Source of the DNA: Escherichia coli
GTDB lineage: Bacteria > Pseudomonadota > Gammaproteobacteria > Enterobacterales > Enterobacteriaceae
Assembly: GCF_045037415.1 (NCBI RefSeq)
Contig: NZ_CP173438.1
Length of the DNA: 64,000 nucleotides
Reading direction: 5' to 3' (one strand)
In this document: piece by piece, positions 13,194 through 22,508 of the stretch
Layout: the number at the start of each line of letters is the position of its first letter
How positions within the stretch are numbered: the first letter of the stretch is position 1
The notes under the pieces: model-generated
Databases searched by the model: none
Told to the model about the DNA's origin: nothing
The model's input: the letters and a program-made list of their open reading frames with translations, nothing else
Made by a program: the position numbers and the translations under genes

Positions 13194-14477
13194 ATGGCTG
13201 ATACAAAAGCAAAACTCACCCTCAACGGGGACACAGCTGTTGAACTGGATGTGCTGAAAGGCACGCTGGGTCAAGATGTTATTGATATCCGTACTCTCGG
13301 TTCAAAAGGTGTGTTCACCTTTGACCCAGGCTTCACTTCAACCGCATCCTGCGAATCTAAAATTACTTTTATTGATGGTGATGAAGGTATTTTGCTGCAC
13401 CGCGGTTTCCCGATCGATCAGCTGGCGACCGATTCTAACTACCTGGAAGTTTGTTACATCCTGCTGAATGGTGAAAAACCGACTCAGGAACAGTATGACG
13501 AATTTAAAACTACGGTGACCCGTCATACCATGATCCACGAGCAGATTACCCGTCTGTTCCATGCTTTCCGTCGCGACTCGCATCCAATGGCAGTCATGTG
13601 TGGTATTACCGGCGCGCTGGCAGCGTTCTATCACGACTCGCTGGATGTTAACAATCCTCGTCATCGTGAAATTGCCGCGTTCCGCCTGCTGTCAAAAATG
13701 CCGACCATGGCCGCGATGTGTTACAAGTATTCCATTGGTCAGCCATTTGTTTACCCGCGCAACGATCTCTCCTACGCCGGTAACTTCCTGAATATGATGT
13801 TCTCCACACCGTGCGAACCGTATGAAGTTAATCCGATTCTGGAACGTGCTATGGACCGTATTCTGATCCTGCACGCTGACCATGAACAGAACGCCTCCAC
13901 CTCCACCGTGCGTACCGCTGGCTCTTCGGGTGCGAACCCGTTTGCCTGTATCGCAGCAGGTATTGCTTCACTGTGGGGACCTGCGCACGGTGGTGCTAAC
14001 GAAGCGGCGCTGAAAATGCTGGAAGAAATCAGCTCCGTTAAACACATTCCGGAATTTGTTCGTCGTGCGAAAGACAAAAATGATTCTTTCCGCCTGATGG
14101 GCTTCGGTCATCGCGTGTACAAAAACTACGACCCGCGCGCCACCGTAATGCGTGAAACCTGCCATGAAGTGCTGAAAGAGCTGGGCACCAAAGATGACCT
14201 GCTGGAAGTGGCTATGGAGCTGGAAAACATCGCGCTGAACGACCCGTACTTTATCGAGAAAAAACTGTACCCGAACGTCGATTTCTACTCTGGTATCATC
14301 CTGAAAGCGATGGGTATTCCGTCTTCTATGTTCACCGTGATCTTCGCTATGGCACGTACGGTTGGCTGGATCGCCCACTGGAGCGAAATGCACAGTGACG
14401 GTATGAAGATTGCCCGTCCGCGTCAGCTGTATACCGGCTACGCGCAGCGTGATTTTAAGTCGGATATTAAGAAGTAA
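13194..14477 (+). CDS. gltA: citrate synthase
   Basis: 427 aa; [22 protein letters not shown]-terminus; GFGHRVY active-site motif. Confidence 0.97.
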
Positions 14478-14492
14478 AAATGACACCGACAA

Positions 14493-14521
14493 AACCCTGC
14501 GTGGACACGCAGGGTTTTTAA
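14493..14521. terminator. Bidirectional intrinsic terminator between gltA and the TRAP operon
   Basis: aaaa-ccctgcgtg-gac-acgcaggg-tttttt: perfect hairpin flanked by A-run and T-run. Confidence 0.75.
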
Positions 14522-14523
14522 TT

Positions 14524-15834
14524 CTACACCAGCAGCAAAGATATTGCCGGAATATAGGTAATGACCAACAGAAGTAAAATAAGACTGATCAGTAATGGCA
14601 CCGCTTCACGCATAAATTGCCCGACAGAAACCTGTACGGTATTACATACCAGCAGCATCACCGTTCCGACAGGTGGTGATAACGTTCCTAACGATAAGTT
14701 GAGGATCATAATGATGCCAAAATGCACCGGATCAATGCCAAAATGAGCCACCACGGGTTTAAGTAATGGGACTAATATCAGCAGAATGGCACTACCTTCA
14801 AGGAACATGCCAAGCACCAGCAGCAATAGATTGATAATCAATAAAAAGACGTATTTATTATCGGTCAGAGAAGTTACAAACTCCGCAACCGTGATACCTG
14901 CCCGCTCAAGGGAAAATATCCAGCCCAGCGCGGCACTCGCCATAATGATTAACATGACCGATGCCGTGGAACGCGCCGTCTCAGAGAGTGCTGTAAATAC
15001 ATGGCTGATTTTCAGTTCGCGATAAATTACAAAACCAATAAACATTACCAATAATACTGCTACCGCTCCGGCTTCCGTTGGCGTAAAGATATTTGCCCGA
15101 ATACCACCGATAACCGCAACAATTAAGAACAGTGCTGGCCAGGCCTGCACCAGCGCCACTGACACTTCTTTCGGTTTTGGCCAGTGTTCGCTGGAAGGTT
15201 TTAAACCGCGACGAATAGCCACCAACCATACGGTAACGATCAACATGGCGGAGCACAGCAGACCTGGCAGGATCCCGGCCATAAACATGGAGCCGATGGA
15301 GACATCCGCCACCAGTCCGTAAAGGATCAGTGCAATACCCGGTGGAATAATTGGTGTAATCAGCGAACCACTTGCCGTTATCGCCGCCGCAAAGCCACGG
15401 GAATAACCTTTCTGTTCCATTTCCGGCACCATCATGCGCGATAACATTGCGGCATCCGCCAGATTTGAGGCACTGACACCGCCCATCATGGTACTGACCA
15501 GAATATTAGCCCCACCCAGGCCACCGCGCATTCTGCCAATCAACACGTTGGCAATTTGCAAAATACGCGCGGCAATACCGGTATAGCTCATTAACGTGCC
15601 TAATAAGATAAAAAACGGAATAGCTAACAGCGAAGGGGTTTGCGTCGTGGCAATCAAACGCTGAATTGCCACCATTAACGGCACATTTGAATAGCAAAGG
15701 AAGTAGGTCAGAATGCCGCAAAACATCGCCAGCCATACCGGCATATTGATAAATAAACAGACGAACATAAGCGGAATGATCATCAGCCAGTTATCCAGCC
15801 AGCTTCCCGCCAGTAATTCACTCAATGCTGTCAT
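14524..15834 (-). CDS. TRAP transporter large permease subunit (DctM family)
   Basis: 436 aa polytopic membrane protein; stop/start overlap with the upstream small permease. Confidence 0.85.
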   Translation of the reverse strand: MTALSELLAGSWLDNWLMIIPLMFVCLFINMPVWLAMFCGILTYFLCYSNVPLMVAIQRLIATTQTPSLLAIPFFILLGTLMSYTGIAARILQIANVLIGRMRGGLGGANILVSTMMGGVSASNLADAAMLSRMMVPEMEQKGYSRGFAAAITASGSLITPIIPPGIALILYGLVADVSIGSMFMAGILPGLLCSAMLIVTVWLVAIRRGLKPSSEHWPKPKEVSVALVQAWPALFLIVAVIGGIRANIFTPTEAGAVAVLLVMFIGFVIYRELKISHVFTALSETARSTASVMLIIMASAALGWIFSLERAGITVAEFVTSLTDNKYVFLLIINLLLLVLGMFLEGSAILLILVPLLKPVVAHFGIDPVHFGIIMILNLSLGTLSPPVGTVMLLVCNTVQVSVGQFMREAVPLLISLILLLLVITYIPAISLLLV

Positions 15835-16295
15835 TATTCACCTTCTTTGCGTGGCGTTTTCTTGATCAGTTGTAAGGCAGTAAAACAGGCGACACCGATA
15901 GCGCCAACCGTGACGGCAATATCGATCCAAAACCAGGATATTTTTAATATTTGCGTGGTTTTAAAGGCTGTCCCGGCAGCTAATTTCCATGCTGACCAGG
16001 CCATGACCACCAGCAAAATAATAGACATCAGAGAGACTAAAAACGCTAATATACGTTGCCCGCGTGAAGTAAGTGCATCGGCTAAAAATGGAATCGATAA
16101 ATGGGTATTATCTCGTTCAGCAACAACCGCACCAAACATGACTACCCAAATCATTAATAAACCGGAAACCTCTTCTGTCCACTGTAATGGCATATGAAAA
16201 CAGTAACGCATTATTACCGCAGCAATGGTCATGATTACCAATATAAAGAGCGTTAATACCGCAGCAACTTCAATCATTTTCCCTAAAAGACGCAT
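15834..16295 (-). CDS. TRAP transporter small permease subunit (DctQ family)
   Basis: ORF-track frame 15834..16331; start placed at ATG 16295 (MRLLGKMIEVAAVL, GAGG Shine-Dalgarno); alternative upstream start at 16331. Confidence 0.7.
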   Translation of the reverse strand: MRLLGKMIEVAAVLTLFILVIMTIAAVIMRYCFHMPLQWTEEVSGLLMIWVVMFGAVVAERDNTHLSIPFLADALTSRGQRILAFLVSLMSIILLVVMAWSAWKLAAGTAFKTTQILKISWFWIDIAVTVGAIGVACFTALQLIKKTPRKEGE

Positions 16296-16354
16296 AAACA
16301 CCTCTGCTCTTAACGGTCGGTGCCGAAACACCGACCAGTCCTTATGCCATGAAG

Positions 16355-17323
16355 TTATTTCAGCTGTTGCTGAATAGTGTCATACAAACCAGGGGTCCAT
16401 TCCGGGAATTGTTGATAGACTTTTAAGGCTTTTTCTTTGAAAGGGGCGACGTCAGGATAGATGATTTCCACGCCCTGCTCCTGCATGGTTTTCAACATTG
16501 TCGCATCCTGCTCAGTGGTAATTTTCTGGCTATATAAACCAGCTTCATACGCTGTCTGGTGAATAATATCTAACTGCGCAGGTGTCAGGGTACTGAAAAA
16601 CGCTTCGCCACCCAACCATAATGATGTATTGGTCAGATAGTTCACCATTGACAGATATTTCGCCTGCTCATGCAGCTTTTGCCCATAGAGAACAGAAACC
16701 GGGTTTTCCACACCATCGATCATCCCCTGAGTCAGCGCCGGATAAACATCTCCCAGCGGCATTGGTGTTGGGGTTGCGCCCATCGCTTCGATAGCTTTAA
16801 TCTGCATGACGTTATTCGGCACGCGGATCTTCATCCCTTTCAAGTCTTCAGGTGTACGAATCGGTTTTTTAGCAATGATCTGCCTGGTACCGTACAGATA
16901 GTTGCTCATGACAATATGCACACCTTTTTCCCGTAGTTTCTGTTCTTTTTGTTTAAACCAGTCACTGGCATAAATCGCAAACAGTTTCTGCGGATCTTCG
17001 GTTAAATAAGGCCCAAACAATATTCCCAAGTCTGCATCGTAGTCAGTTAAAAATCCTACATCACTGATGGTGATAATATTCATCCCCATCAACGCTTGTT
17101 CAGTAATATCTTGTTTAGAACCTAACTGTGAACTTGGGTAAAGTTCGAAAACAATATCTCCATTGCTTTTTTTCTTCACAAGTTCTGCCCAGTGCTTCAC
17201 TACTGTATCCGCTGGCTCGCCGGGGTTACTTTCATAGGCGATTTTGATAGTTACCGGTGCGGCATTCAGCATCGGACTAAATAAAGCTAAAAGAAATAAA
17301 AGTGGTGTCAGTAATTTTTTCAT
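16355..17323 (-). CDS. TRAP transporter substrate-binding protein (DctP family)
   Basis: 322 aa; signal peptide MKKLLTPLLFLLALFSPMLNAAPV; periplasmic binding-protein fold. Confidence 0.85.
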   Translation of the reverse strand: MKKLLTPLLFLLALFSPMLNAAPVTIKIAYESNPGEPADTVVKHWAELVKKKSNGDIVFELYPSSQLGSKQDITEQALMGMNIITISDVGFLTDYDADLGILFGPYLTEDPQKLFAIYASDWFKQKEQKLREKGVHIVMSNYLYGTRQIIAKKPIRTPEDLKGMKIRVPNNVMQIKAIEAMGATPTPMPLGDVYPALTQGMIDGVENPVSVLYGQKLHEQAKYLSMVNYLTNTSLWLGGEAFFSTLTPAQLDIIHQTAYEAGLYSQKITTEQDATMLKTMQEQGVEIIYPDVAPFKEKALKVYQQFPEWTPGLYDTIQQQLK

Positions 17324-17350
17324 TATTATTACCTGTAAGAGCTTTATCGA

Positions 17351-18547
17351 TTAACGGGGATCTGCCCGACAGACTGCACTTTTGCTGTAATCAAATGCTT
17401 TATACGTTAAAACAAACTCCTGATGTTCCAGTCGTTCTGCGGCACAATATTGACCGTTGGCGACATGTTCAATCACCTGCATAATATCGTCTGCAATATC
17501 GTCGAGCGTTGCGCCTTCGCTAATTACACGACCGGCATTAACGTCCATATCGTCAGATAAATGCTCCCACGTCTGCGGGTTATTACACACTTTAATAATA
17601 GGAGCGATCACTGAACCAATAACTGAACCGCGACCTGTGGTAAATAACACCATATGACAGCCAGAGGCGATAAGTTCCAGTGCTTCTGAGGAATCGTTAA
17701 TATTCGGATACCCAAAACGAGGTTCACCATCAGGCACCACGTCCATCAACCAAAGCCCAGGAAAGGGCGTTTGTTGCGTCGGCAAAATAACGCCAGCAAT
17801 CAGCGCATCGCCCGACTTGGTATAAGCCCCAAGGGATTTTTCTTCCTGAGTGGTTAAGCCGCCTTCAGCATTACCGTTAGAAAAACTCCCCAGCCCCATC
17901 AAACTGTAATAACGTTCGGCTTTTGTCATTGCCACTTCGATGGCATCACGTGCCTGCGAACTAGCCGCGCGCGACATCATATGCTGCTCACAACCAAGCA
18001 ACTCACCGCTTTCTTCAAAAATACAGGTAGCCCCTTTCTCCAGCAGTTGGTCAAAGGCACGTCCTACTGCCGGGTTACCCGTGATACCACTGGTGCCATC
18101 GGAGCCACCGCAGATAGTACCAACCACCAGGTCGCTCCAGTTCAGGATACAACGCGGTGTATCCGCAAGCTGTTCCAGCATTTCAGCGACCAACTGCTTA
18201 CCCAGAGTAATGGTGTTGGTCGTGCCTTTATTTTCCTGAATGACCAGCGTATGGCACGGTCGCCCACTTTCTCGTACTTCTTGCTCCAGCCGACGGCGAT
18301 CGAAATTCTCGCACCCCAGCGAAATAATCAGTACACCACCTACGTTGCTATGAGTCGCCAGATTTTTCACCAGCCGATAGCCATAATCGCTGGGATAACA
18401 ACCTGAAAAACCAAAATACTGCACGTCGTGACAAGGAAATCCTTCGGCAATCTTTTTAGCGACATGGCTGGCACACTCCACCATAAAGATTACCTGCACA
18501 GTATTACGAATACCTGGTCGACCATTTTGCCGTACATAACCTTCCAT
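17351..18547 (-). CDS. UxaA-family sugar-acid dehydratase, large subunit
   Basis: 398 aa resembling the C-terminal domain of altronate/galactarate dehydratases; 1-nt stop/start overlap with the SAF-domain partner. Confidence 0.8.
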   Translation of the reverse strand: MEGYVRQNGRPGIRNTVQVIFMVECASHVAKKIAEGFPCHDVQYFGFSGCYPSDYGYRLVKNLATHSNVGGVLIISLGCENFDRRRLEQEVRESGRPCHTLVIQENKGTTNTITLGKQLVAEMLEQLADTPRCILNWSDLVVGTICGGSDGTSGITGNPAVGRAFDQLLEKGATCIFEESGELLGCEQHMMSRAASSQARDAIEVAMTKAERYYSLMGLGSFSNGNAEGGLTTQEEKSLGAYTKSGDALIAGVILPTQQTPFPGLWLMDVVPDGEPRFGYPNINDSSEALELIASGCHMVLFTTGRGSVIGSVIAPIIKVCNNPQTWEHLSDDMDVNAGRVISEGATLDDIADDIMQVIEHVANGQYCAAERLEHQEFVLTYKAFDYSKSAVCRADPR

Positions 18548-18855
18548 TATGCTTTTTCCTCTGACTGATAGCCGGCATCATCATGATGAAAAATGGCGAT
18601 GGCATTGCTGGCAAGATTATGGGAATGCACATGTTCACCCATGGCAATATCGCGAGTGGCGTGTCCGATAATGGCGCCGTATTTCAGAATCGAATCACCA
18701 TTGTTCAGCGCTTCGCAGGCCAGTTTGTGCCCCAGGGTAACGGAACTACAGGCCACCATTTCCCCCTCATCCCACCAGACAATATCGCCACTGGCGATGT
18801 CATTCAGCGCGACTACACAGTTATCTTTGGCATGTAGCTTTAACGCACGTTTGCG
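18547..18855 (-). CDS. UxaA-family dehydratase small subunit (SAF domain)
   Basis: ORF-track frame extends to 18963 and would overlap the SDR gene; start placed at internal Met (MRKRALKLHAKDNCVVAL). Confidence 0.65.
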   Translation of the reverse strand, partial: RKRALKLHAKDNCVVALNDIASGDIVWWDEGEMVACSSVTLGHKLACEALNNGDSILKYGAIIGHATRDIAMGEHVHSHNLASNAIAIFHHDDAGYQSEEKA

Positions 18856-18872
18856 CATAATTCCTCCGTACA

Positions 18873-19628
18873 TCAGAAGCCGATCAATGCGCCGCCATCC
18901 ACCACCAGCACCTGACCACTGACAAACGCCGCTGCGTCTGAAGCCAGATAAACCGCAGCCCAACCGATATCCTCCGGCTTGCCGAATTTTTTCATCGGGG
19001 TACGACCCAGGATTTTGTTACGGCGTTCGTCATCACCTTCAATGGCCTTACGCAACATTGGTGTATCGATCCAGCCTGGCGCAATACCATTGACGCGAAT
19101 CCCATGAACGGCAAGCTCCGTGGTCATACCGCGAATCATGCCGAGATAGGCTGACTTCGCTGCGCTGTAGCCAGTAACCAGAGGCTGCCCAAGAAATGAG
19201 GTCATCGATGCAGTAAAAAGCACACAGCCTTTACCGCGTTGTTTCATATGCGGCACCAGCGCTTTGGTTAACGCAAATGCGCCGACTACGTGAACGTCGA
19301 GTACTGACTCAAAATCACTGACGCTCATCTCTTCAATCGGTTTTTTGCAGTGATTGCCTGCGTTATTGACCAGGATATCGATAGCCCCGTGTTCGCTAAT
19401 AAGCACATCAACTTTTTCCTGCGCGGCTGCGGTATCCCCGACATCCATTTGTATCCAACTGGCCTGCGACCCCAATGTTCCGGCGGTCGCTTGCGCCAGC
19501 TCGCCGTTCAGGTCAGCAATAATGACCTTCGCCCCGCTGACTATCATGCATTTCGCCATTGCCAGCCCCAGCCCACTGGCTGCACCGGTGATCAACGCGG
19601 TTTTGTTATGTAAAGAAAAAGCATTCAT
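18873..19628 (-). CDS. SDR-family NAD(P)-dependent oxidoreductase
   Basis: 251 aa; TGAASGLGLA Rossmann motif, YSAAK catalytic motif. Confidence 0.85.
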   Translation of the reverse strand: MNAFSLHNKTALITGAASGLGLAMAKCMIVSGAKVIIADLNGELAQATAGTLGSQASWIQMDVGDTAAAQEKVDVLISEHGAIDILVNNAGNHCKKPIEEMSVSDFESVLDVHVVGAFALTKALVPHMKQRGKGCVLFTASMTSFLGQPLVTGYSAAKSAYLGMIRGMTTELAVHGIRVNGIAPGWIDTPMLRKAIEGDDERRNKILGRTPMKKFGKPEDIGWAAVYLASDAAAFVSGQVLVVDGGALIGF

Positions 19629-19639
19629 GGTGTCGCTCC

Positions 19640-20653
19640 TTAAAGGTCAATGAGGATTTTGGTATACGCGCCGGGATCACTTGCCCAGTCGCTAAAAGCG
19701 TGATCAGCCTGTTCCAGCGGGTAGTGAGCACTCACCAGATTGCTGACCGGATAACGCCCGGACTCCATCAATGCCAGCACGGCACGAAAATCCGCCACGG
19801 TGGCATTGCGCGAACCACGGATATCCAGTTCTTTCATCAGGAACTGCGCACTCTGATAACTCACTGGCTGTTTGGCGTAACCGACATAAACCACACGACC
19901 GCTAAACGCCACCAACCCTGTAGCCTGTTCAATGGTTTGTTGATTACCCACCGCTTCAATCACCACTTCCGGGCCGCGACCGTCATTTAACAGCACCAGT
20001 TCTGCCGCCACGTCACATTGCTGCGAATTAAGAAAACGTTGCGCACCGCATTCCAGGGCAATGTTCCGCTTGCGATCATCAATATCGATAGCAATTACGC
20101 GCGCCCCCATGGCGGATGCCGCGGCGATAGCGCCAAGGCCAATTACCCCACAACCGATAACTGCGACCCATTCACCCACATTAATTTGCGCACGTCTGGC
20201 CGCATGTAGTCCCACGGCCAGCGGTTCTACCAGCGCTAACTCATCAACACTTAAGGCATTACAGACAATGACTTTATGTGCAGGCATCGTCAGTTGTTGC
20301 GCCATCCCCCCCTGACGTTGCACACCAAGAGTTTGGTTGTTTTTACAGGCGTTAGGACGACCGCTCAGACAGGAGCTGCACACGCCACACTCAGTGCAAG
20401 GCAGAACGACCACCCGGTCACCTGGCTTGATCGCCCCTGCCATATCGCCAGTTGCCAGCACCGTGCCGCCAATTTCATGCCCCGGAATACAGGGATAATT
20501 AACCAGCGGATTTAGTCCCCGCCAGGTATTGAGGTCAGAACCACACAGTCCGACACGCTCAACATTGATTAGCACTTCTCCTTTACCGCAGACAGGTTCG
20601 GGGATATCAACAAATCGCGCCTGACTTCCCTGCTCAATGGTTAATGCCTTCAT
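19640..20653 (-). CDS. Zn-dependent medium-chain alcohol/polyol dehydrogenase
   Basis: 337 aa; catalytic zinc motif (GHEIGG), structural-zinc Cys cluster (CTECGVCSSC), GCGVIGLG NAD motif. Confidence 0.85.
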   Translation of the reverse strand: MKALTIEQGSQARFVDIPEPVCGKGEVLINVERVGLCGSDLNTWRGLNPLVNYPCIPGHEIGGTVLATGDMAGAIKPGDRVVVLPCTECGVCSSCLSGRPNACKNNQTLGVQRQGGMAQQLTMPAHKVIVCNALSVDELALVEPLAVGLHAARRAQINVGEWVAVIGCGVIGLGAIAAASAMGARVIAIDIDDRKRNIALECGAQRFLNSQQCDVAAELVLLNDGRGPEVVIEAVGNQQTIEQATGLVAFSGRVVYVGYAKQPVSYQSAQFLMKELDIRGSRNATVADFRAVLALMESGRYPVSNLVSAHYPLEQADHAFSDWASDPGAYTKILIDL

Positions 20654-20665
20654 TCATTGCTCTCC

Positions 20666-21352
20666 TTACATTACGCCGAAGGTTTCAAAGGCCTGTACCG
20701 TGCTCATGCCATCACTGATGGCTTTGCGCACTTCACTTTCAGTTGCCACTTTTTCCAGGGCCTGGGTAATAACTTCTTTCTCAACAACCTGGGGAATAAT
20801 CAGTAATCCGTCACGATCACCAAACACGATATCGCCCGGATTCACTCGCACGCCGTGAAATTCAATAGGTACGCCGAAGTCGATGACCTTGCCGCGCGGA
20901 CCTTGATCCTGTGCGTAAGTGCCATGACAAAAAGTGGGAAATTTCAATTCAAGAATTTCAGCAGAGTCACGGGCGTAACCATCGAGTACCGCACCTGCTG
21001 CTTTCAGATGCATGGCACGGGTAGACATCAACCCGCCCCACAAGGCATAGCGCAGAGAGCTGCCCGTAGTGATGTAAACATCGTTCTCTTTGAGGGCATC
21101 CAGCGCTTCAAACATGATGCCAAACGGTTTTTCGCCAATCGCCGTCTTACCCGACGTCGATTTGGTTTCGTAAACGTCCGACTCCAGCACCGGCATTGCC
21201 CGGCCTGCCACCACCGTATTCACATCCAGCGGCTTGATTGCCGGAGAAACAAACTGGTGCATATAGCCCAGCGTGTCGAGAATATCGCCAACCACGGCGG
21301 TAAATAGCCGGGTTTTCATCAAAGCAAAAAGTTCGTTATCACTCTTCCACAT
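20666..21352 (-). CDS. RraA-family protein (putative 4-hydroxy-2-oxoacid aldolase / oxaloacetate decarboxylase-like)
   Basis: ORF-track frame 20666..21409; start placed at MWKSDNELFALMK; first gene of the catabolic operon. Confidence 0.7.
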   Translation of the reverse strand: MWKSDNELFALMKTRLFTAVVGDILDTLGYMHQFVSPAIKPLDVNTVVAGRAMPVLESDVYETKSTSGKTAIGEKPFGIMFEALDALKENDVYITTGSSLRYALWGGLMSTRAMHLKAAGAVLDGYARDSAEILELKFPTFCHGTYAQDQGPRGKVIDFGVPIEFHGVRVNPGDIVFGDRDGLLIIPQVVEKEVITQALEKVATESEVRKAISDGMSTVQAFETFGVM

Positions 21353-21409
21353 TATTTTCGTCCTGTAAGCCTGTTTAACAGGTTTACAGGGTAAGGAGAA
21401 AAAGCGCAC

Positions 21410-21615
21410 AATACTGCGAAGGGCGTCACGAAAAAGTTGTGTATTTACTATTTCTTCGCCACTCTTTCACACAATATGTCTTTGATTCGCACTGCATGGC
21501 GGGCGCACAGGCGCAGTAGTCTATTGATAATCAAGGGTTCTGGAGGAAAATATGAAGGATACAGTCCCGGTATTCTGGATTTCACCGACCAGGAAAAAGT
21601 ACAACAGGAGTAAAA
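21410..21615. promoter_or_regulatory. Divergent promoter region between the island-A catabolic operon and its GntR regulator
   Basis: 206-bp spacer between divergently oriented genes; contains a 23-codon uORF with a strong Shine-Dalgarno sequence. Confidence 0.45.
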
Positions 21616-22329
21616 ATGAGTGAGAGTGCGTTATTGACCAGCGTAACGTTATCGTCACAGGTCAAAAATCATATTCTTAATCTGATCGCCGAACAAAAAT
21701 TGACACCGGGGATGCCAGTTCCCAGTGAAGTTCAGCTGATTCAGAAATTGGGTGTCAGTCGGGGTATTGTGCGTGAGGCCTATCGTTCACTTGCCGCCCT
21801 GGGGATTCTGGAAACGCACAGCGGTAAAGTGCCACGAATCAAAAAATTTGATGATGAAGTGCTGCGCGTGGTGTTTGGATTTGCCCTGGCGACCGAACAA
21901 GTGACAACAGAGCAAATTCTTCAAGTACGCCGCTGGCTGGAGTTGGGCGTTGTGGAAGCTGCTGCCCGTAATGGCGAAGAGGAAGATTTTGCTAACCTAC
22001 GGGCTGAAATGGCAAAAATCCGCGAACAGTTCAATGATGTTGAAAGCTTTATCACCCATGATATCCGCTTCCATCAGTTACTTGCCGTTGCCTCAAAAAA
22101 TCCGCTTTTTATGATGTTATTGCAGGCATTACATCAGCAGTTGCGGCAATCCATCCAGGAGGGTTTAAACGCCCAAAGCGATCAGAAAGAGTATGGCAAT
22201 CACATCATCACACTACACCAGAAAATCTGCGATGCTGTGTGTGCCAGGGATGTCGAAACGGCGACTCAAGCCATGAAATCACACTTCGACAGCCCGGTCA
22301 GTGCACTGATCAATAATTCCTCGTCATAA
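21616..22329 (+). CDS. GntR/FadR-family transcriptional regulator
   Basis: 237 aa; N-terminal HTH (SEVQLIQKLGVSRGIVREAYRSL) and helical C-terminal effector domain; AGGAG Shine-Dalgarno. Confidence 0.85.
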   Translation: MSESALLTSVTLSSQVKNHILNLIAEQKLTPGMPVPSEVQLIQKLGVSRGIVREAYRSLAALGILETHSGKVPRIKKFDDEVLRVVFGFALATEQVTTEQILQVRRWLELGVVEAAARNGEEEDFANLRAEMAKIREQFNDVESFITHDIRFHQLLAVASKNPLFMMLLQALHQQLRQSIQEGLNAQSDQKEYGNHIITLHQKICDAVCARDVETATQAMKSHFDSPVSALINNSSS

Positions 22330-22508
22330 GACTTATCTCAGTTCAATCGTTTACTCTTCCCTCTTTTACAAACGAGAGGGAGACAACGGTACTTAATACG
22401 CCCTTTAGCCAAAATCTGTCTTTTTCTTGATTACCGCTATTTTTTCGTTGAGGCGCATTCTTTATGCTGTATCGATACACCAAAGGTAAGTTAAACAGGG
22501 AGTGACGG

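Follow-up and report, generated by a model that had tools for sequence, protein, structure and literature searches.

What does an RraA-family protein do at the head of a catabolic operon? The question is posed by a 64,000-nucleotide stretch of Escherichia coli DNA (contig NZ_CP173438.1; hereafter the window), in which a minus-strand gene at 20666–21352, the first of a sugar-acid operon, encodes a member of this family that we call the RraA-like protein. The usual annotation of such genes is RNase E regulator, "demethylmenaquinone methyltransferase" or aldolase of HMG (4-hydroxy-4-methyl-2-oxoglutarate), and these labels leave unexplained thousands of RraA-like genes in the sugar-acid and glycan clusters of E. 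coli, Bacteroidales, Flavobacteriaceae, Rhizobiales and haloarchaea. We propose that the RraA-like protein is a pyruvate-forming class II aldolase that would use a divalent metal to cleave a 2-keto-3-deoxy-hexonate, a reading to which we assign a probability of roughly 0.55. We infer this activity, the substrate and the order of the steps from gene order, protein family, active-site residues and the gene neighbourhoods of relatives.

The coding sequence runs from an ATG at 21352 to a stop codon inside 20666–21352 and encodes 228 residues identical to RefSeq WP_000265973.1 ("RraA family protein"). An alternative, longer open reading frame (ORF) begins at a GTG and reaches 21409. The homologues are 228–233 residues long and start at the ATG, not at the upstream GTG, and we therefore take 20666–21352 as the true coding sequence. 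The only Pfam family matched by the protein is PF03737, with 110.8 bits where the gathering threshold is 24.5, and the match extends over residues 18–184 and positions 1–151 of the 152 in the profile.

The roles of active-site residues have been described for the aldolase of HMG and CHA (4-carboxy-4-hydroxy-2-oxoadipate) in PDB entry 3NOJ, including those of the acidic metal ligands D124 and E199 (PMC5065237; bioRxiv 10.1101/516542). In that enzyme R123 is essential and stabilises the pyruvate enolate (PMC5065237), and pyruvate is bound by the backbone of the G101–L104 stretch (bioRxiv 10.1101/516542). Residues 20–222 of 3NOJ were taken from the HMMER alignment and then aligned to the RraA-like protein and to other members. 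We found that R128 of the RraA-like protein corresponds to R123, D129 to D124, E205 to E199 and K201 to R195, and that G106, G107, L108 and M109 align with G101, D102, L103 and L104. E205 lies on a helix (residues 188–213) of the AlphaFold2 model and is predicted to be a metal ligand supplied by the neighbouring subunit, as E199 is in 3NOJ.

RraA-like lyases use one of two metal-supporting motifs (PMC5065237). In the RraA-like protein, a glycine occupies the position of D102 of 3NOJ and a compensating acid is found at E132, giving G107-X20-R128-D129-S-A-E132 (RDSAE), which is a G-X20-R-D-X2-E motif. Mazurkewich et al. in 2014 reportedly defined the two motifs as D-X20-R-D and G-X20-R-D-X2-E/D; they are also said to have found Thermus thermophilus RraA and yeast Yer010c active as HMG aldolase and oxaloacetate decarboxylase, and E. 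coli RraA to be without the motif. In our HMMER alignments the G-X20-R-D-X2-E/D arrangement is common to the RraA-like protein, T. thermophilus RraA and Yer010c.

Selection on these residues was examined in 220 distinct full-length relatives, aligned down to about 35% identity. R128 and D129 are kept in all 219 relatives aligned there, G106 in 219 of the 220, E205 in 203 and K201 in 194. Positions 107 and 132 behave as a pair: 118 of the 220 relatives have glycine at 107 and an acid at 132, about 92 have an acid (E or D) at 107 and a non-acid at 132, and both positions are acidic in only 4 and neither in about 3. Such a nearly perfect either/or exchange is expected where the water shell of the metal has to be reached by one carboxylate and no more, and it does not fit easily with a protein that lacks catalytic activity. 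The family-specific residues D149 (200 of 220) and R153 (214 of 220) are candidates for substrate recognition and map to the loop that lies over the distal substrate pocket in 3NOJ. The original prediction considered an aldolase role more plausible in view of the accompanying dehydratase and proposed alignment to a characterised HMG/CHA aldolase as a check. That alignment shows conservation of the catalytic Arg and of every acid in the metal site, and these residues are strongly selected in the family. The preference for an aldolase thus gains computational support, both from these residues and from the low score on the RraA family model given next.

On the NCBIfam equivalog for RraA (NF006875) the protein reaches 42.7 bits against a cutoff of 136, and on the two HMG/CHA aldolase equivalogs, TIGR02798 and NF006731, it reaches 53.9 against 304.5 and 61.0 against 179. 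Since it falls short of all these cutoffs, the RraA-like protein is an orthologue of neither RraA nor HMG/CHA aldolase. Its AlphaFold2 model has a mean confidence (pLDDT) of 95.7, and in Foldseek searches it superimposes best on long-form members: 5IR2 (HLB5; template-modelling (TM) score 0.82), 3K4I (PSPTO_3204), 2C5Q (Yer010c) and 3NOJ (query-normalised TM score 0.79). Against the short RraAs of about 160 residues (1Q5X, 2YJV) the TM score is only about 0.54, and the 228-residue RraA-like protein has N-terminal and C-terminal extensions. All PDB matches with E < 1e-9 are RraA-like proteins, with TM scores of 0.5–0.82. High-identity homologues in Flavobacteriaceae had suggested orthology to FlDet, an RraA-family enzyme of Flavobacterium sp. 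UMI-01 whose sequence we took from the supplement of PMC8563752. FlDet orthologues are 63–80% identical to FlDet and the RraA-like protein is 29% identical, and this identity together with the other motif type rules the orthology out. By sequence, then, we place the RraA-like protein in the catalytically equipped branch of the RraA-like superfamily, outside the HMG/CHA aldolase, RraA and FlDet groups. Its label is "RraA family protein" in RefSeq and "putative HMG aldolase" in UniRef, so the aldolase label as such is not new; what we add is an assignment to a pathway and to a sugar-acid class of substrate, and the evidence from covariation of positions 107 and 132.

The RraA-like gene is followed by seven genes on the same strand, and a ninth gene diverges from it:

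20666–21352, minus strand: RraA-like protein, 228 residues, gene 1 of the operon; PF03737, E 9.1e-32; predicted class II pyruvate-forming aldolase.
19640–20653, minus strand: zinc-dependent alcohol dehydrogenase (Zn-ADH) with ADH_N and ADH_zinc_N domains; probable hexonate 5-dehydrogenase, L-galactonate 5-dehydrogenase-like.
18873–19628, minus strand: short-chain dehydrogenase/reductase (SDR), adh_short_C2 at E 7e-59; probable 5-keto-hexonate reductase (UxaB analogue) of the gluconate-5-dehydrogenase/KduD/DhuD type.
18547–18858, minus strand: small SAF subunit of a UxaA-family dehydratase, PF08666 SAF at E 4e-11; "UxaA family hydrolase" in RefSeq.
17351–18547, minus strand: large subunit of the UxaA-family dehydratase (altronate/galactarate dehydratase family), GD_AH_C at E 3e-75 and GD_AH_second at E 2e-27.
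16355–17323, minus strand: solute-binding protein DctP of a tripartite ATP-independent periplasmic (TRAP) transporter, PDB 4OVT at E 1e-142; predicted L-galactonate/L-fuconate binder.
15834–16295, minus strand: TRAP small permease DctQ, PF04290 at E 1e-28; RefSeq start.
14524–15834, minus strand: TRAP large permease DctM, PF06808 at E 4e-109.
21616–22329, plus strand: divergent GntR/FCD-family regulator with GntR and FCD domains.

From the RraA-like gene down to DctM the gaps are 12, 11, 14, −1, 27, 59 and −1 nucleotides. As these eight genes are co-directional and the gaps range only from −1 to 59, we regard them as one operon. The start of DctQ is ambiguous: the longest ORF begins at a GTG at 16331 (165 residues), whereas RefSeq places the gene at 15834–16295 (153 residues). 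A promoter and terminator scan of 14300–21700 gave counts that are not above those in shuffled sequence (12 vs 10.6 and 10 vs 8.3). An RraA-family protein as the first gene of a catabolic operon, as originally predicted, is what ORF, Pfam match, RefSeq entry and gene order all show, and the dehydratase said to share the operon is there as well, identified by the GD_AH_C and GD_AH_second matches and a separate SAF subunit.

We compared 31 loci ORF by ORF, together with precomputed Pfam tables. Relatives of 56–67% identity occur in Proteobacteria, Bacteroidales and Flavobacteriaceae, and their genes adjoin three unrelated families of sugar-acid dehydratase. The neighbour is a split UxaA in Escherichia, Entomohabitans, a Succinivibrionaceae metagenome-assembled genome (MAG), a Bacteroidales MAG (with GH2/GH43 flanks), Phaeobacter and Aliiruegeria. 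Ensifer, Rhizobium, Tabrizicola, a Rhodobacteraceae MAG and Ancalomicrobiaceae have UxuA in this place, and Snuella has an enolase-superfamily dehydratase. Three loci were scored on the mannonate-dehydratase equivalog (cutoff 199.55): the UxuA adjacent to the RraA-like gene reaches 467–491 bits, and a second UxuA paralogue, located in an operon of the fumarylacetoacetate hydrolase (FAH) type at the same locus, reaches 108 bits and stays below the cutoff. Mannonate and altronate dehydratases both yield 2-keto-3-deoxy-D-gluconate (KDG). Hence, KDG is the unifying point on which the UxuA and UxaA partners converge, the coupling to the RraA-like gene being one of association. The predicted pairing with a dehydratase that forms a 2-keto-3-deoxy acid therefore reaches beyond this operon, recurring across phyla with three non-homologous dehydratase families. 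Adjacency of ManD/UxuA and RraA has been noted, without biochemistry, in genome descriptions of haloarchaea and of Paenibacillus/Agrobacterium (PMC10963439, PMC12673573).

Several of these loci hold further features. Snuella sedimenti (L002, 3350–6768) has a second, distant RraA paralogue of 218 residues, 31% identical to the RraA-like protein and with E at position 107. It is directly followed by a split UxaA and a major facilitator superfamily (MFS) transporter, and the group lies between a GH20 gene and a GH29 alpha-L-fucosidase gene; this is an independent RraA–dehydratase pairing with an L-fucose flavour. The Ensifer locus (L007/L008, 1–10693) contains a complete "route 3" operon of the FAH type, with genes for an ABC transporter, an SDR, a divergent UxuA paralogue, an SGL lactonase and FAH, and also a divergent pair of true UxuA and RraA-like protein, with a GntR regulator shared with the FAH-type operon; related sugar acids may accordingly have two parallel ends here. 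Another conserved protein, some 335–340 residues long and matched by no Pfam or NCBIfam model, recurs in these sugar-acid clusters (L007, 227–1249, minus strand; L017, 10681–11706, plus strand; L032, 7948–8952, plus strand). In a Rhizobium MAG it is the direct neighbour of the RraA-like gene, as it is on a Burkholderia pseudomallei plasmid. This protein could be a pathway enzyme that has so far escaped recognition, perhaps the missing sugar dehydrogenase.

The transporter and the dehydrogenases bear on what the island consumes. DctP is 68% identical to PDB 4OVT (Ochrobactrum anthropi Oant_3902, an Enzyme Function Initiative (EFI) target; TM 0.87), and its second PDB match is 4O8M (Actinobacillus succinogenes, EFI-510004; 43% identity). 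DctP orthologues of 65–72% identity in Salipiger and Castellaniella are found in clusters with a Zn-ADH, a Mannitol_dh protein of the UxaB type and a full-length UxaA. Zn-ADH, UxaB and UxaA are the gene set of the established route from L-galactonate through D-tagaturonate and D-altronate to KDG. The island Zn-ADH is 52% identical to that of the Castellaniella DctPQM–UxaB–UxaA cluster, and the large UxaA subunit is 33–35% identical to the full-length UxaA of the L-galactonate clusters; the only PDB sequence relative of this subunit is the galactarate dehydratase 6U7L (E 3e-31). Phaeobacter carries exactly the gene set of the island with nothing added, and the Aliiruegeria cluster has in addition an aldo-keto reductase and an Amidohydro_2 protein, a family that includes L-fucono-1,5-lactonase. 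The best named matches of the SDR are gluconate 5-dehydrogenase and enzymes of the KduD/DhuD type, all below equivalog cutoffs. Gluconate 5-dehydrogenase, KduD and DhuD reduce the C5 ketone next to the terminal carbon. We also considered the SDR as a 2-keto-3-deoxy-L-fuconate (L-KDF) 4-dehydrogenase; no enzyme of that name is among the best 60 PDB matches, where the named ones are of the gluconate-5-dehydrogenase, KduD and DhuD types, and this assignment is not supported.

Taken together, these assignments suggest a course for the pathway. The TRAP system would import an L-galacto-configured hexonate (L-galactonate and/or L-fuconate). The Zn-ADH would oxidise C5 and the SDR would re-reduce it with the opposite configuration, an inversion of C5 like that of IdnD/IdnO and LgoD/UxaB, and the split UxaA-type dehydratase would then form KDG or its 6-deoxy analogue. 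The RraA-like enzyme would bind the 2-oxo-acid end via Mg2+, with D129, E205 of the neighbouring subunit and a water positioned by E132 around the metal. R128 would stabilise the pyruvate enolate as the C3–C4 bond breaks in a retro-aldol reaction, giving pyruvate and a C3 aldehyde, either glyceraldehyde or lactaldehyde. That KDG in particular is the substrate, which would make the activity EC 4.1.2.51-like with D-glyceraldehyde as the second product, is a tentative assignment, which we hold with distinctly less confidence than the aldolase reaction itself.

A number of points weigh against this proposal. The original prediction stated that the operon otherwise lacks a cleavage step, which holds only within the operon: the core genome of E. 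coli has KdgK and Eda, which could also dispose of KDG, and a dedicated KDG aldolase looks redundant. As a speculation, a 6-deoxy substrate would resolve the redundancy, because no phosphorylation at C6 would be possible, and it would agree with L-fuconate as a ligand of the solute-binding protein. The ligands bound in 4OVT and 4O8M, which bear on the substrate class, are reportedly L-fuconate and L-galactonate, respectively. Nitratireductor and a Paracoccus plasmid (L019, 5533–11223; L033, 4554–10226) have a module of GntR/FCD regulator, TctCBA, SDR, RraA-like protein and small cupin with no dehydratase; the cupin could, speculatively, be a KduI-like isomerase that again leads to KDG. The homologues in Variovorax and Kiloniellaceae are not surrounded by sugar-acid genes, and our full-text literature search found no assay of any member of the RraA-like subfamily. 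The near-constant SDR neighbour also fits a different mechanism, oxidation followed by cleavage. Finally, the RraA fold supports other chemistry, as FlDet is a dehydratase/decarboxylase that does not use KDG (PMC8563752). Among RraA-fold enzymes, FlDet alone has been shown to use a sugar acid as substrate, and it is not an aldolase.

In the oxidise-then-cleave scheme, the SDR would oxidise C4 to give a 2,4-diketo-3-deoxy acid, and the RraA-like enzyme, as a beta-diketone hydrolase in place of FAH, would hydrolyse the C3–C4 bond of the hydrated diketone, so that pyruvate and a carboxylic acid (L-lactate or glycerate) are formed and no reactive aldehyde. We know of no such hydrolase reaction for the RraA fold. 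The scheme would account for the SDR gene, which in most loci directly adjoins the RraA-like gene and in several overlaps its ORF, and for the TctCBA–SDR–RraA–cupin modules that lack a dehydratase. A non-phosphorylative route 3 of dehydratase, SDR 4-dehydrogenase and hydrolase is established for L-fucose (PMC11199699), the RraA fold cleaves C3–C4 bonds with either an alcohol (aldolase) or a carboxylate (oxaloacetate decarboxylase) at C4 (PMC5065237), so that the scheme is a natural one chemically, and NCBIfam includes an FAH–RraA fusion protein, PRK12764. However, Ensifer and the B. pseudomallei plasmid have an FAH hydrolase and the RraA-like gene together in one cluster, which weakens a simple replacement of FAH, and there are UxuA–RraA pairs with no SDR in between. 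The island SDR is moreover like gluconate 5-dehydrogenase, KduD and DhuD, with L-KDF 4-dehydrogenase absent from its best 60 PDB matches, and its identity to the SDR in the FAH-type operon is only 31%. The scheme would also leave the Zn-ADH without a role. On balance we judge the scheme unlikely.

A somewhat smaller chance attaches to other lyase chemistry, namely FlDet-like dehydration and decarboxylation of a keto-deoxy-aldarate, or decarboxylation of an oxaloacetate-like beta-keto acid formed by the dehydrogenases. FlDet converts 2-keto-3-deoxy-glucarate to 2-ketoglutarate semialdehyde (alpha-KGSA) (PMC8563752), the dehydratase family of the island includes galactarate dehydratase, whose structure 6U7L is its only PDB sequence relative, and the name and annotation of HMG/CHA aldolase include oxaloacetate decarboxylase activity. 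Against FlDet-like chemistry stand the 29% identity and the motifs (D-X20-R-D in FlDet, G-X20-R-D-X2-E in the RraA-like protein), and neither the island nor the identical Phaeobacter module has an alpha-KGSA (aldehyde) dehydrogenase; orthologues of the solute-binding protein and the Zn-ADH point to hexonates and not to aldarates. A non-catalytic regulator of RNase E or the degradosome, like E. coli RraA and carried in the catabolic island by chance, seems to us very improbable. The RraA-like protein does share Pfam family and fold with E. coli RraA, and one long-form member, Streptomyces RraAS2 (5X15), carries a description as inhibitor of RNase ES. Yet the score on the RraA equivalog is far below its cutoff and the TM score to short RraAs is about 0.54, the invariant catalytic and metal residues and the compensatory 107/132 exchange would not be maintained in a non-enzyme, and membership in operons with sugar-acid enzymes is conserved across phyla. 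A pyruvate-forming aldolase is the reading we retain.

The island lies on the E. coli chromosome between gltA (citrate synthase, 13194–14477) and abrB, nei and pxpA, which follow from 22509 on. The gltA–abrB interval (14478–22508 of the window) holds the nine-gene island here and the ybgOPQD fimbrial operon in K-12 (locus L038). Of 5426 complete E. coli genomes, 660 (about 12%) carry the RraA-like gene, each as a single chromosomal copy with at least 99% identity, and the island-positive E. coli genomes among those listed are mostly human-derived; the RraA-like gene is also present in E. whittamii, E. albertii and Entomohabitans. We saw no mobility genes and no flanking repeats at the island junctions, and base composition gives no clear signal of horizontal transfer (44–53% GC in the island, 50–56% in the flanks). 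With ybgOPQD replaced by it in about 12% of these complete genomes, the island may mark a niche-specific nutrient capability.

Upstream of the RraA-like gene we found a near-perfect palindrome, CCTGTAAGCCTGTT-A-AACAGGTTTACAGG, at 21362–21390, with arms of 14 nucleotides that are 93% complementary. It is located 10–38 nucleotides upstream of the start codon and overlaps the Shine-Dalgarno sequence. Its core, AACCTGTTAAACAGG, is unchanged in E. coli, E. whittamii, E. albertii and Entomohabitans, where the flanks differ, and contains TGT-N3-ACA, a signature typical of GntR/FadR-type operators. In most loci compared, a GntR/FCD gene goes with the RraA-like cluster. From its sequence features the palindrome is a candidate operator, probably the one bound by the divergent GntR/FCD regulator.

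The RraA-like subfamily is widespread, and the implications of an aldolase function would extend beyond this island. A class II aldolase of the RraA fold for KDG-type acids would be a third non-homologous solution beside the DHDPS/NAL and HpcH families, and would provide bacteria with a kinase-independent end to the catabolism of hexuronates, L-galactonate and 6-deoxy-hexonates. The annotation of a large protein family would be corrected, including that of a PDB entry labelled "cellulase".

A close comparison is with the HMG/CHA aldolases (LigK/ProA/GalC, also PcmE; EC 4.1.3.17; the Pseudomonas putida F1 enzyme is 3NOJ). The RraA-like protein shares with them the long-form RraA fold, the catalytic Arg, the metal-binding Asp, the Glu on the C-terminal helix and the Gly-lined pyruvate pocket. 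It differs in sequence (20–23% identity), in having G and not D at the X20 position together with E132, in carrying its own family-specific D149 and R153, and in its location in a sugar-acid/TRAP operon and not in a meta-cleavage operon for protocatechuate or gallate. T. thermophilus RraA (1J3L) and Yer010c (2C5Q) have the same motif type, and Yer010c also shares the stretch GGLMSTRA; unlike the RraA-like gene, theirs have no sugar-acid operon context, and T. thermophilus RraA is a short form of 164 residues. FlDet is alike in using the RraA fold on a 2-keto-3-deoxy sugar acid with activation by Mg2+ (PMC8563752), and unlike in its diacid substrate, its product alpha-KGSA and its partner aldehyde dehydrogenase, which is absent from the island. 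The closest solved structure is HLB5 from Parabacteroides johnsonii (5IR2; E 5e-18), which has the WGG(L/V)M pocket and the R-D pair in common with the RraA-like protein. In the HLB5 crystal, tartrate occupies the pocket that corresponds to the pyruvate site, and the HLB5 gene lies in a glycan-utilisation cluster; the protein was deposited as a "novel cellulase", a label that came from a screen and that the structure does not explain (bioRxiv 10.1101/516542). HLB5 differs from the RraA-like protein in having Q for E at the X2 position, at 26–29% identity, and no metal was observed in its crystal (bioRxiv 10.1101/516542). The cellulase label looks doubtful, and a role as a sugar-acid lyase seems more likely.

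The remaining comparisons concern the pathway. Among the non-phosphorylative 2-keto-3-deoxy-acid aldolases, the archaeal KD(P)G and the bacterial L-KDF aldolases are class I enzymes of the DHDPS/NAL family, and GarL and YfaU of E. coli are class II enzymes of the HpcH family. These folds are unrelated to that of the RraA-like protein, which, since PF03737 is its only match, would be a non-homologous isofunctional enzyme. In function, the archaeal KD(P)G aldolase, the L-KDF aldolase and GarL/YfaU occupy the place proposed here, after a sugar-acid dehydratase and before pyruvate and an aldehyde (route 1, PMC11199699). The E. coli L-galactonate pathway (LgoT/LgoD, UxaB, UxaA, KdgK and Eda) matches the island in predicted substrate class and in the sequence of C5 oxidation, re-reduction and dehydration. 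The island differs from it in having a TRAP importer, an SDR for UxaB and a split, divergent UxaA, and in adding the RraA-like enzyme in place of the kinase and the KDPG aldolase.

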